The notes under the pieces were generated by a model. It was not told where the DNA came from. It searched no databases and was given only the letters and a program-made list of their open reading frames with translations. From Escherichia phage T5, in sequence record NC_005859.1: 64,000 nt of DNA, one strand, 5' to 3'. Shown one piece after another: positions 10,936-55,685 of this stretch (the first letter of the stretch is position 1; every line of letters begins with the position of its first letter). The position numbers and the translations under genes are program-made.

Positions 10936-11820
10936 TTATAATAATTCTTGGTATGCTTTTTGATACGCCTCAGTATCTGTAGGTGTATCTTTTGCTAACG
11001 CAATTAGTTCATCTGTTATCTGAACATTCGTACTATAACGTTGGTGGAACTCTTCTGGGATTTCTAGGTATCTATTTATGAACGCTGCAGCAAGCGGTGT
11101 AACTAACCCAATTTCTAGGGATAACTTAACTTGTTTCTCATAAATTAAATACTGAGAATCAGATGGGATTGGTGGGGTTACATCAACTTTTTCTGGTTCT
11201 TTTTCTGGAAGCAATGGATTGTTATACAATGCTTCATCTGGAAGCACAGATTTACGCTCTTTAAATATATAAGTTTCTAGATCCGATGCTTTAGATCCTG
11301 AGTAAACAGCGAAGATGCTAGCTTTACCTTGTGATGCCCTAACTGGTAAATAGTTAGTTGGGTAACTCCTTAATGCATCATGGAATGGACTTCCTGAGTA
11401 TTTGTATGTATCCCCATAGAGATCATCAATATTCATTCGTTCATCTTCAAAGATATGGAAAGAGCTAAATGATGGGATGGTGAAGTATTCCATCTGTAAC
11501 CCATAAACTAAGAAACGATGTGCATATGCGCTAATCTTTAAGACTGTGAATGCTTTCTCACCTTCTTTATAAGAATTGCCCTTTGAAGTAACTTGATAAC
11601 GCTTACAAAACATCTCTACTAAACGTTTCTCATTAATATTGAGTGAGGAATATAAACGTCCATTTAGCCCTAGAAGGGCATCAAACATAAATGCTAACTT
11701 ATCTTTTTCTTCTTGAGACAGTTCTGGAAATGGTAATACTTTGGCATTAGGAACATTATTGTTCTCTTTAGGTTTTGTTTTACCAGCATTTTGTCTTAGT
11801 TTATCTTTAAAGTTATACAT
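10936..11820 (-). CDS. hypothetical protein
   Basis: 294-aa ORF, first gene of minus-strand early block. Confidence 0.6.
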   Translation of the reverse strand: MYNFKDKLRQNAGKTKPKENNNVPNAKVLPFPELSQEEKDKLAFMFDALLGLNGRLYSSLNINEKRLVEMFCKRYQVTSKGNSYKEGEKAFTVLKISAYAHRFLVYGLQMEYFTIPSFSSFHIFEDERMNIDDLYGDTYKYSGSPFHDALRSYPTNYLPVRASQGKASIFAVYSGSKASDLETYIFKERKSVLPDEALYNNPLLPEKEPEKVDVTPPIPSDSQYLIYEKQVKLSLEIGLVTPLAAAFINRYLEIPEEFHQRYSTNVQITDELIALAKDTPTDTEAYQKAYQELL

Positions 11821-11901
11821 TATTTATCTCTCATTTTTTAAGGTCTGGATGACCTTCTTTTTATTTTAGAGCCTCCGTAGAGGCTCATGTATTAGGAATT
11901 A

Positions 11902-12510
11902 TTAATCCTTTTTATTCTCATTAATAACAGCTCCTAGTGCTTCAAGGATAGTATCATTTATACTCCCAGGCCTAAGATTATTAAAGTGAGTAACATAGAT
12001 GGGACTTTTAAAACCTTCAGTATCCACAGGTGCTACGCTTTTCATGTCAGATTCAAAAGCTTCTTGAGTATGTTTCAATTGTGCAGAAGGTCCATAATCT
12101 TCACCAACTCGATATGAGGAATTATTTTCTATAACGCCACCGCATGGAACATTGTGCAAATCCGACGTTATTTTAGGACTGTTCCACATTGTAATTGGCC
12201 CCGATTGCCACGGATCTCGAATAGTCACAGGAGTACTAGGACGGTTAACCTCAGTCTTCACAAGCTTATAACCAGCATCGATTAGTGTATTAATTAGATT
12301 ATCAGCGGGAATACGAGCCTTGCCAAAAATCTTACGAGCGTTGTTGAGCCTACCTTCAAAATCTTTACATGCTTTAATATTAGTGTGTGCAAAGGTTAGC
12401 TTCATAGATTTGAACTGTACGGTAGCAGTTAAATCTTTAAAAGCATAATCCCACGTATTCAGTTCATGATCTGGTACTACTTGAATAGATTGCTGTGCAT
12501 ATAAAGTCAT
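11902..12510 (-). CDS. hypothetical protein
   Basis: 202-aa ORF; contains one copy of the GTGCAAATCCGAC repeat motif at 12164-12176. Confidence 0.6.
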   Translation of the reverse strand: MTLYAQQSIQVVPDHELNTWDYAFKDLTATVQFKSMKLTFAHTNIKACKDFEGRLNNARKIFGKARIPADNLINTLIDAGYKLVKTEVNRPSTPVTIRDPWQSGPITMWNSPKITSDLHNVPCGGVIENNSSYRVGEDYGPSAQLKHTQEAFESDMKSVAPVDTEGFKSPIYVTHFNNLRPGSINDTILEALGAVINENKKD

Positions 12511-27262: not shown

Positions 27263-27574
27263 TCACAGATCGGGGTGCTTATCTTCTAAACAGTCCGAGC
27301 TAATATATTCTCCGGATCCTACGAAGCCATCAAATTCATCATTTGAAATATCCGTAATCATTGCTTCCATTTTCCTAATCTCCGAGGTTTTCATCCCTGC
27401 TTTACTATTCTTAAAGTGTTTGCGAGGATTCCCGCACATCCAACAAGAACAGATACAAGGAGTAGTAGTGATAATACCTAACCGTTTAGGGCCTTCATGT
27501 GGGAAGACTGTCCAGTATTTCTTGCGGTTGTTCTTCACACGTTGCCGGTGATGACGTCTTAATGCTCGATCCAC
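27263..27574 (-). CDS. zinc-finger-like protein
   Basis: 103 aa; CICSCWMCGNPRKH cluster. Confidence 0.45.
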   Translation of the reverse strand: MDRALRRHHRQRVKNNRKKYWTVFPHEGPKRLGIITTTPCICSCWMCGNPRKHFKNSKAGMKTSEIRKMEAMITDISNDEFDGFVGSGEYISSDCLEDKHPDL

Positions 27575-27655: not shown

Positions 27656-28099
27656 TTACATCGCCTGAGTAAATGTACGACTAATAACGTCGTTCTGCTG
27701 TTCACGCGTCAGTGCGTTAAAACGCACAGCGTACCCTGAAACACGGATAGTTAATTGAGGGTATTTTTCAGGATGTTTCTGTGCATCCAAAAGCTGATCA
27801 CGACTTAACACATTGACATTTAGGTGTTGACCACCTTCAATTTGAGGGGCGACTTCCACTTTGACTTCACGAAAGGATTCGGGGTCAAAATGAGGTGTAA
27901 TACCTTCTAGATCTTCAACTAGAACTTTTTGTTTAAGTTCACCATCTTTAGAATATAATTGAATAATCTGATTATTATGAACAATATTAATTACGCCAGA
28001 TTTAAGATTTTGATACGCTTTCATTAGATCTCCTGGTTGGTAGTTAGTAGTGGATTTGAACCACTGTAGTCGCTCCGTATGAAGGAGGTGCATAACCAC
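27656..28099 (-). CDS. grcA: autonomous glycyl-radical cofactor (GrcA/YfiD-like)
   Basis: C-terminal ~70 aa near-identical in pattern to GrcA: GGQHLNVNV ... [19 protein letters not shown] ... RTFT. Confidence 0.85.
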
Positions 28100-28209
28100 T
28101 CTGCCAACTAACTATTATGTTTTACTAGGCTAAGTAAGTATTCTTTGTACTCCTTAGACCAACTAGCTTTTTTAAACTTTCCTGGACGCATAGTCTTAAT
28201 TCCTAGATT

Positions 28210-28286
28210 TGGTACTCCGGGAGGGATTTAAACCCCCGATCTCTCGGTTATCAGCCGAGTGCTTTAGATCGCTAAGCTACCGAAGT
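28210..28286 (-). tRNA. tRNA-Ile (anticodon GAU)
   Basis: hand-folded cloverleaf, CCA encoded; anticodon loop CTGATAA; T-arm GGGGG/TTTAAAT/CCCTC. Confidence 0.7.
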
Positions 28287-29176: not shown

Positions 29177-29252
29177 TGGAGCGGCTAGAGGGAATCGAAC
29201 CCTACTCAGCGAGGCTTGGAAGGCCTGCGACACAACCCGTGTGCTTAACCGC
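29177..29252 (-). tRNA. tRNA-Gly (anticodon UCC)
   Basis: CCA encoded; anticodon loop CTTCCAA; acceptor stem 7 bp with one GU. Confidence 0.65.
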
Positions 29253-29259
29253 GATTATT

Positions 29260-53960: not shown

Positions 53961-55685
53961 ATGAATCGCAATGATGAACTAAAATACAAGGAAATGCAGT
54001 CCTTGATTAGAAACTGCAAAGAAATTATTGAGGGTTCTGCTGATGAAGAGCTTCTCTTTAATAATGCGAATAAACCCTCTGAGCGTTTCCCTACACAAAG
54101 GGATATGCTTGCAGGGGAATTGAGTAAATATCTGATTCTAGAAGAAATGCCAGTTCAGATTCGAAATGCTCATATGATTGGAGATATTCATTTCCATGAT
54201 GCTGACTACGCTGCATTAGGCATGACTAACTGTTGCCTAGTAGCTCTAGAAGATATGTTGAAAAATGGTATGAAAGTTGGTAATGCTGAAATTAGTACAC
54301 CAAATTCTATTACTACTGCGGCGGCTATTACAGCTCAAATTATCACACAGGTTAGCTCCCATCAGTATGGTGGTACTTCTGTAGACCGATTAGATGAAGT
54401 ATTGGCCCCTTATGTTCGTAAGTCTTATGATAAGAATCATGCGTTTGCAAAACGTTGGACTAAGGATGAAGCCAAAGCATCAGTAATGGCTACGGAGATG
54501 ACTGAAAAAGAAGTCTATGATGCTTGTCAGGGTCTAGAGTATGAGATCAATACGATGTTCAACTCTAATGGTCAGAGTCCATTTATTACTTTTGGTTTTG
54601 GTCTAGGAACTTCTTGGGAAGCACGTCTAATACAGAAAGCAATACTGAAAGTACGTATGGATGGCTTAGGCATCAATAAACGTACAGCTATCTTTCCGAA
54701 ACTGGTGTTTGTTCTGCGTGATGGCGTAAATATGAAGCCTGGAGATGTTAATTATGACATCAAGAAGTTAGCTATGAAATGTACTGCTGAACGTATGTAT
54801 CCAGACTATATCAGCTATGATAAGGTTGTGGAAGTTACTGGTGACTATAAAGTTTCTATGGGCTGCCGTTCATTCTTAGCTGCTACAGAAGATGGTGAAA
54901 CTGCCGGTCGTAATAACTTGGGTGTTGTTTCTGTAAACTTGCCTAGAATTGCTATCGAAGCTGAAGGGAATATTGATCTATTCTTTGATTTGCTTGAGCT
55001 ACGTGTGGATACAGCGTTAAAAGCATTGGAGTGGAGAGTTGATCGCTTAAAATACATTCAAGCTAAAGCCGCACCCATCCTCTATATGTCAGGGGCCTTT
55101 GGATTACGCTTAGGGCCTGATGAATATGTATTCGATCAGAAGAAGGAAGAGACTAAGTTAGGTTATAGCCTGTATGCTACACCATCAGAGTCCCTATGTG
55201 ATCGCTTCTGTCGTCTAGACCGTGAATATTTTCCGGAGCATGAAGATATTCTGTCCAAAGGATACTACACTAACTCTCACCACCTTGATGTGGAACGTAA
55301 AGTTGCTCCTAACGTGAAATTTGATTACGAATCTAACTTTACTCCGATTGCTTCTGGTGGGTGTATCTCTTATGTAGAACTACCAGATATGAAACGATTC
55401 CCAGATGCACTGGAATGGGTTATTAATTATGCTGCTAGTAAGGTTCATTACTTCGGTATTAATACTCCAGTGGATTCCTGTGGTAAATGTGGATTCTTAG
55501 GTGAAACAGTAGCATCCGAAGATGGATTTAAGTGCCCTATCTGTGGTAATCATGACCCTGAAACTCTTGAAGTAACTCGTCGAGTTTGTGGGTATCTTGG
55601 AAATCCAGGTGCTCGTCCGTTTAACCCAGGAAAACAACATGAGGTTATGGGCAGGGTGAAACATCAGGATATTCGAGCTAAATAA
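53961..55685 (+). CDS. nrdD: anaerobic ribonucleotide reductase (class III, glycyl-radical)
   Basis: 574 aa; C-terminal CxxC...CxxC Zn ribbon and glycyl-radical motif RRVCGY; consensus promoter and GAAGGAGG SD. Confidence 0.85.
   Translation: MNRNDELKYKEMQSLIRNCKEIIEGSADEELLFNNANKPSERFPTQRDMLAGELSKYLILEEMPVQIRNAHMIGDIHFHDADYAALGMTNCCLVALEDMLKNGMKVGNAEISTPNSITTAAAITAQIITQVSSHQYGGTSVDRLDEVLAPYVRKSYDKNHAFAKRWTKDEAKASVMATEMTEKEVYDACQGLEYEINTMFNSNGQSPFITFGFGLGTSWEARLIQKAILKVRMDGLGINKRTAIFPKLVFVLRDGVNMKPGDVNYDIKKLAMKCTAERMYPDYISYDKVVEVTGDYKVSMGCRSFLAATEDGETAGRNNLGVVSVNLPRIAIEAEGNIDLFFDLLELRVDTALKALEWRVDRLKYIQAKAAPILYMSGAFGLRLGPDEYVFDQKKEETKLGYSLYATPSESLCDRFCRLDREYFPEHEDILSKGYYTNSHHLDVERKVAPNVKFDYESNFTPIASGGCISYVELPDMKRFPDALEWVINYAASKVHYFGINTPVDSCGKCGFLGETVASEDGFKCPICGNHDPETLEVTRRVCGYLGNPGARPFNPGKQHEVMGRVKHQDIRAK

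Follow-up and report, generated by a model that had tools for sequence, protein, structure and literature searches.

T5p055 of phage T5 is a GrcA/YfiD-type stand-alone glycyl-radical protein and a probable spare part for O2-cleaved host PflB

Two small glycyl-radical proteins, YfiD (GrcA) of Escherichia coli and Y06I of phage T4, are radicalised by PFL-AE and restore PFL that has been cleaved by O2 (Wagner et al. 2001, BBRC 285:456, as summarised in PMC8683613). According to PMC8683613, these two are the sole validated spare parts. The same paper describes the role of the strand before the radical domain (y-beta1), which duplicates a PFL barrel strand, and reports that the N-terminal region of YfiD governs binding to cleaved PFL and that the N-terminus of E. 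coli GrcA is disordered by NMR in the free protein. The T4 gene is vs.6, annotated as GrcA. Phages that carry nrdD without nrdG were noted in 2013, with T5, SPC35 and EPS7 among the phages surveyed (PMC3653736). Our literature search found no paper on glycyl-radical proteins of Tequintavirus, no report on the expression timing or fitness effect of T5p055 in T5, and nothing useful on cross-reactivity between host and phage activases; a T4 omics paper did not mention vs.6 or GrcA.

Hundreds of T5-like isolates have been sequenced, and many are used or proposed for biocontrol of Salmonella and E. coli. We analyzed a window of 64,000 nucleotides of the T5 genome (record NC_005859.1; positions below are those of this window), in which a preliminary description had pointed to a GrcA-like gene. 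The novelty implied there did not hold: genes of the kind of T5p055 are known from phages, T5p055 itself is already annotated in T5, Y06I was validated in 2001, and the presence of nrdD without nrdG is covered by the survey of PMC3653736. The value of the present analysis lies in confirmation and tidying, namely of the strand and start of the gene, of PFL and not NrdD as its partner, of the clade-wide absence of nrdG, of the contrast with T4 and of a probable defect in the nrdD of this record. The modest new points are that the T5 lineage of the gene is old and phage-adapted in contrast to the recently host-derived domain of T4, and that a deletion in nrdD is unique to this record. The gene and the features upstream of it are as follows.

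27656..28024, minus strand: CDS of T5p055, a GrcA-like autonomous glycyl-radical protein, 122 aa plus TAA stop (ORF translation and T5 annotation)
28030..28034, minus strand: Shine-Dalgarno sequence AGGAG, read from the sequence
28038..28113, minus strand: tRNA-Met (CAT), from ARAGORN and the T5 annotation; overlaps the 5' part of the 147-aa ORF
28210..28286, minus strand: tRNA-Ile (GAT), from ARAGORN and the annotation; upstream of T5p055 and transcribed the same way

The ORF listing of the window contains a minus-strand ORF of 147 aa with a GTG start at 27656..28099. This ORF had been described with exactly these coordinates; its strand had been left unstated, and its 5' end proved to be over-extended into tRNA-Met. 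Because its first 25 codons (75 nt, 28025-28099) are non-coding and belong to the tRNA-Met gene, the 147-aa reading was dropped in favor of the 122-aa CDS. The true start is the ATG at 28024-28022, which is preceded at a distance of 5 nt by the Shine-Dalgarno sequence. The 122-aa CDS is the version annotated in T5 records, as "pyruvate formate-lyase related protein" (for this region, the annotation of the T5 record is usable with a coordinate offset of +3), and its N-terminus, MKAYQ, is that of all the homologues aligned. T5p055 is a free-standing gene with its own Shine-Dalgarno sequence, ATG and TAA stop and with tRNA-Met upstream, and is no fragment of a PFL gene. Its length is identical in 30 T5-like loci.

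The CCA end encoded by the tRNA-Met gene is separated from the ATG by 13 nt, which contain the Shine-Dalgarno sequence; therefore, the T5p055 mRNA is presumably freed by tRNA processing from a tRNA-mRNA co-transcript. The order of tRNA-Ile and tRNA-Met followed by T5p055 recurs in many, not all, T5-like loci: some carry an insertion of approximately 400 bp, and one locus (L010) is without tRNA-Met. The gene lies in a mosaic region, where the T5 tRNA cluster also holds homing endonucleases and small ORFs without a known function. A tRNA-Gly that is present in the T5 st0 annotation (29180-29255 of that record, equivalent to 29177-29252 of the window, minus strand) was not reported by ARAGORN.

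Within the CDS, three parts were distinguished.

27659..27844, minus strand: glycyl-radical domain, codons 61-122, equivalent to PflB 698-759 and GrcA 66-127
27734..27736, minus strand: GGG codon of Gly97 in RVSGYAV, predicted to carry the radical; counterpart of G734 in PFL and G102 in GrcA
27845..28024, minus strand: clade-specific N-terminal half, codons 1-60, with weak similarity to GrcA

Profile and structure-database searches showed that T5p055 matches Pfam Gly_radical (PF01228) at 4e-18, above the gathering score, PHROG 1209 over its full length at 5.8e-48, and, in the PDB, GrcA/YfiD (6OWR, 2.9e-30) and PFL (8e-27). The match to glycyl-radical proteins is thereby confirmed as far beyond chance. 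The stretch quoted in the preliminary description (GGQHLNVNV to RTFT) is present in the translation, and the resemblance of the C-terminal half to the GrcA radical domain claimed there was borne out by direct alignment, as follows. The last 62 residues of T5p055 are identical to the C-terminus of E. coli PflB at 49 positions (79%), to E. coli GrcA at 48 positions (77%), and to T4 Vs.6 likewise at 48 of the 62. An 11-residue barrel strand is identical to PflB 699-709, and a 19-residue block of the radical domain is also identical to that of PflB. Gly97, located in the PFL-AE recognition motif RVSGYAV, is invariant across 24 homologues, and the alignment of these phage and bacterial sequences contains 42 invariant radical-domain columns, G97 included. 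The 10 radical-domain positions that are unique to T5 mostly coincide with differences between GrcA and PflB. In an AF2 model of T5p055 (pLDDT 75), the radical domain was predicted as two helices flanking a beta-hairpin, the tip of which holds G97, and it best matched YfiD 6OWR (TM 0.76, E 1.7e-5) and PFL 2PFL.

T5p055 has 30 residues and the TFTQxM ending in common with the C-terminal domain of PflB (residues 698-759; 2PFL), whereas it is a free-standing protein of 122 aa in contrast to the 760-aa enzyme and is entirely without the catalytic Cys418/Cys419 barrel. E. coli GrcA, with 127 aa, is a small stand-alone protein like T5p055 and has the same RVSGYAV loop and preceding barrel strand, and its structure fits the predicted fold. 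Unlike GrcA, T5p055 is encoded by a phage with phage codon composition, and its N-terminal residues (approximately 50) are at most weakly similar by BLAST and include a 13-residue clade-specific insertion. It also scores 121.5 bits with TIGR04365, the NCBIfam GrcA equivalog, which is below the cutoff of 170 bits and compares with 234 bits for E. coli GrcA. However, because the validated T4 Vs.6 fails as well (151.1 bits), this cutoff is tuned to bacterial GrcA and is no meaningful exclusion of phage versions. The short spare parts GrcA2 and GrcA3 (approximately 80 aa; NF008341 and NF038360) have the same radical domain, and T5p055 scores 116 and 91 bits, respectively, with their models; unlike T5p055, which has the long GrcA-type architecture, they have no N-terminal half and carry RVSGYAVNF/TFH variants. 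Together, these comparisons confirm T5p055, as far as sequence comparison can assign it, as a GrcA/YfiD-type stand-alone glycyl-radical protein. Stand-alone glycyl-radical genes of 77-83 aa were also observed on other phage contigs (L039 1-243, L040 981-1226, L041 3902-4183 and L042 3926-4186); these are without the N-terminal half, carry RVSGYAVNF...TFH variants and resemble GrcA2/GrcA3.

T4 Vs.6 (Y06I) is the closest phage counterpart described above. Like T5p055, it is phage-encoded, is of similar size (120 aa in T4 and 122 aa in T5), starts with MKAYQ and belongs to the same PHROG-level family, with 52% identity over the full length (tblastn), and neither gene adjoins nrdD. BLAST detected no similarity between the N-terminal half of T5p055 and T4 Vs.6. 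The T4 gene (L007 15558-15920) has a mosaic structure. A tract of 185 nt that runs to its stop codon shares 97.8% identity at the DNA level, and 95% at third positions, with grcA of E. coli K-12 (L006 2067-2450), and there is no DNA similarity upstream of this tract. This implies that the radical domain of vs.6 was recently exchanged with the host. At the protein level, the T4 radical domain is identical to that of E. coli GrcA at 59 of 62 residues. In contrast, the DNA of the T5p055 radical domain is only about 70-74% identical to grcA, pflB and vs.6, with third positions saturated and no host-like tract. Because the radical domain of T4 Vs.6 is essentially E. coli GrcA's own, the T4 protein is a weaker precedent for T5p055, with its independently diverged domain and clade-specific N-terminal half.

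The conservation of the gene was analyzed among T5-like phages. The frame of T5p055 is intact in 30 of 30 T5-like loci, which represent 28 distinct alleles. Over these alleles the pooled dN/dS is 0.069 at a dS of 0.38, with values of 0.017 in the radical domain and 0.11 in the N-terminal half, indicating that T5p055 is functional and under strong purifying selection. The GC3 of T5p055 is 0.26, compared with 0.42 in E. coli grcA, and only approximately 45% of its third positions are identical to those of host grcA and pflB. Because of this phage-like composition and the low third-position identity to the host genes, T5p055 is an old resident of its lineage and no recent capture. Homologues occur in 1,584 phage records, comprising T5-likes, T4-likes, jumbo phages and Vibrio and Aeromonas phages, and many of them are annotated as "autonomous glycyl radical cofactor". 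The location in this mosaic tRNA cluster could suggest that T5p055 is a functionless remnant of a captured 3' fragment of host pflB or grcA in a dispensable region. The selection analysis refutes this reading, and the intact frame in every locus, the proper Shine-Dalgarno sequence and ATG, and the base composition and third-position divergence also argue against it; we regard it as extremely unlikely.

The preliminary description had further noted a class III ribonucleotide reductase gene distant from the GrcA-like gene and no activase gene in the window. The features that bear on these points are listed below.

53961..55685, plus strand: nrdD (class III RNR), matching Pfam NRDD at 5.6e-153 and Gly_radical; not functionally tied to T5p055
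27263..27574, minus strand: T5p054, a basic protein of 103 aa in which C-x-C-x-C-x-x-C (TPCICSCWMCGNPRK) is invariant; PHROG 4499, of unknown function

The position of nrdD was exact, and the two genes are indeed about 26 kb apart. T5p055 could be a spare part for the phage NrdD, or could serve glycyl-radical enzymes in general, given that T5 has nrdD without nrdG, that the same O2 cleavage hits all glycyl-radical enzymes, and that spare parts for other such enzymes may exist, as speculated in PMC8683613. The comparison with NrdD argues against this. BLASTP of T5p055 against T5 NrdD gave E = 5.5 in an unrelated stretch and no match to E. coli NrdD, whereas the PflB C-terminus gave 79% identity at 3.7e-35. 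T5 NrdD has a RRVCGYLG loop and a CxxC...CxxC zinc site; this loop and the zinc ribbon are absent from T5p055, which contains no CxxC pairs. The distance between the two genes does not favor a link either. NrdD was rejected as the target of T5p055 for lack of similarity, and we consider this explanation as a whole very improbable. Of the earlier suggestion that a phage GrcA rescues oxygen-damaged glycyl-radical enzymes through host PflA or NrdG, the stand-alone GrcA type and the lack of a T5 activase stood, while the link to NrdD was not supported.

We searched for an activase gene by tblastn, taking NrdG and PflA of E. coli and NrdG of T4 as queries and covering the window and the 64-113 kb part of T5 (what is left is the terminal repeat, the sequence of which is also that of the start of the window), and nothing was found below E = 1.8. 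As a positive control, the same search recovered T4 nrdG at 1.5e-46 and 9e-12. The longest weak match (E. coli NrdG, 130 aa, E = 1.8) falls among the tail genes (L003 33314-33622), runs across two structural genes and was rejected as noise. The absence of an NrdG activase from the window was thus upheld and extended to the rest of T5, and neither an nrdG gene next to nrdD nor a loss of the radical glycine was found. A six-frame scan for CxxxCxxC yielded two spurious segments and T5p054 in the window and one spurious match in the rest of the genome. It had been stated that no ORF with this motif was visible; T5p054 does carry it, and the conclusion that there is no activase is unaffected. As a hidden activase, T5p054 was rejected: it has only 103 aa, no Pfam match even at E<=1, a best PDB match of E 1.8, and no similarity to activase or radical-SAM families. 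Probably, this small protein binds zinc or nucleic acid and is no radical-SAM enzyme. T5p054 is located 84 nt downstream of T5p055 in 30 of 30 T5-like loci; this conserved adjacency is uninformative because the genomes are closely related.

The check for nrdG was then made clade-wide with 27 nrdD loci (L044-L070), 26 from T5-like phages (Demerecviridae) and one from another phage. No nrdG or other activase gene was found within 10 kb on either side of nrdD in the 26 T5-like loci. In the non-T5-like locus (L067), the NrdD of which is 58% identical, nrdG (11788-12237) directly abuts nrdD. T4 also has its own nrdG, unlike T5. For nrdD in the T5-like clade, dN/dS amounts to 0.018 over the whole gene and to 0.006 within the radical domain. 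Over the region of the radical loop, T5 NrdD is closer to E. coli NrdD (44 of 75 residues) than T4 NrdD is (35 of 74). The host strain K-12 encodes pflA, pflB, grcA and nrdG. Because no activase was found in T5 or within 10 kb of nrdD in the T5-like loci, yet both the grcA-like gene and nrdD are under strong purifying selection, the simplest reading is that T5 depends on host PflA and NrdG.

The reading that we favor, with a probability of roughly 80%, is that T5p055 is a spare part for O2-cleaved host PflB that is radicalised by host PflA. In a microaerobic host, or one exposed to fluctuating oxygen, O2 would cut active host PflB at its radical glycine, G734. The C-terminal 62 residues of T5p055 would then take the place of the lost radical domain, supplying the 11-residue strand, the helix, the beta-hairpin with G97 at its tip and the second helix. 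The host radical-SAM activase PflA would put a new radical on G97 within its exact recognition sequence, RVSGYAV; host PflA would be needed for this step because T5 encodes no activase. PFL activity would thereby return, converting pyruvate and CoA to acetyl-CoA and formate and hence providing ATP via acetate kinase, so that fermentative energy metabolism could be kept up during infection in a host unable to make its own GrcA. T5 shuts off host gene expression during infection. From these comparisons we infer that host PflA activates T5p055, that the protein binds cleaved PflB and that the phage benefits.

The identity of the enzyme to be repaired was also considered. Many T5-like records name the T5p055 homologue "2-ketobutyrate formate-lyase", and the T5 domain is equidistant from GrcA and PflB, so that its specificity could have drifted and its main target could be another host enzyme of the PFL family, for example TdcE, and not PflB. 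However, database names of this kind are automatic labels that come without tests, and the strand and Gly-loop blocks of T5p055 are identical to those of PflB. A main target other than PflB is, in our view, quite unlikely.

The N-terminal half bears on a different alternative, in which T5p055 acts as a decoy or regulator that soaks up host PflA or occupies PFL and redirects pyruvate metabolism, for example toward less formate. By BLAST, the similarity of this half to GrcA is weak, being limited to one 10-residue stretch against YREVPVEVKP (E 0.004), although the PHROG 1209 match takes in this half as well. AF2 predicted a beta-sheet here; a structured N-terminal domain as a T5-specific feature was rejected, as the control on E. 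coli GrcA gave the same confident beta-sheet although that region is disordered by NMR. A decoy would keep the exact heptapeptide recognized by PflA, as T5p055 does, and a clade-specific N-terminal half under its own purifying selection would agree with such a role, given the part that this region plays in YfiD. Nevertheless, conservation goes beyond the PflA-recognition loop to the whole catalytic radical domain, with its 42 invariant columns and the low dN/dS of the C-terminal half; a decoy has no need for a barrel strand identical to that of PflB; and the T4 homologue restores PFL and does not inhibit it. A decoy or regulatory role is distinctly improbable, and repair of cleaved PflB is the preferred reading.

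If repair of PflB is the function, T5-like phages carry an auxiliary metabolic gene that shields host fermentation from oxygen fluctuations, and they need the activases of the host for two radical enzymes, which bears on how such phages perform in the gut. A bolder version, which we put forward only tentatively and consider doubtful, is that T5p055, as an anciently phage-adapted, non-redundant lineage with its own N-terminal half, is tuned to sustain PFL after shutoff, and that the anaerobic energy supply and the dNTP supply of T5 both hang on host PflA and NrdG. If this were true, mutation of host pflA or nrdG would make a bacterium a selectively poor host for T5-like phages when conditions are anaerobic or microaerobic, as in the gut.

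Alignment of nrdD among T5-like phages showed an in-frame deletion of 150 bp (50 codons) in the present record, with its junction after 55138 and between 7-bp direct repeats (TCGATCA). The deletion removes the conserved segment RASVSLGYIGCHE, which is similar to RASISLGYIGIHE of E. coli. The 150 bp are present in all other T5-like records and loci examined, in which the full nrdD comprises 624 codons. Either this is a mutation of a laboratory stock or the record was misassembled; NrdD without these 50 codons is probably inactive. The alignment of T5 NrdD with that of E. coli begins only at residue 113 (54% identity), and T5 NrdD is without the N-terminal part of about 110 aa where the host enzyme has its ATP-cone. 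In one further T5-like genome, similar to HdH2 (L064 10001-11969), the nrdD frame extends for 440 codons before it breaks, and the locus exceeds the usual length by about 97 nt; because this gene is annotated elsewhere as two pieces, it may be split or interrupted.
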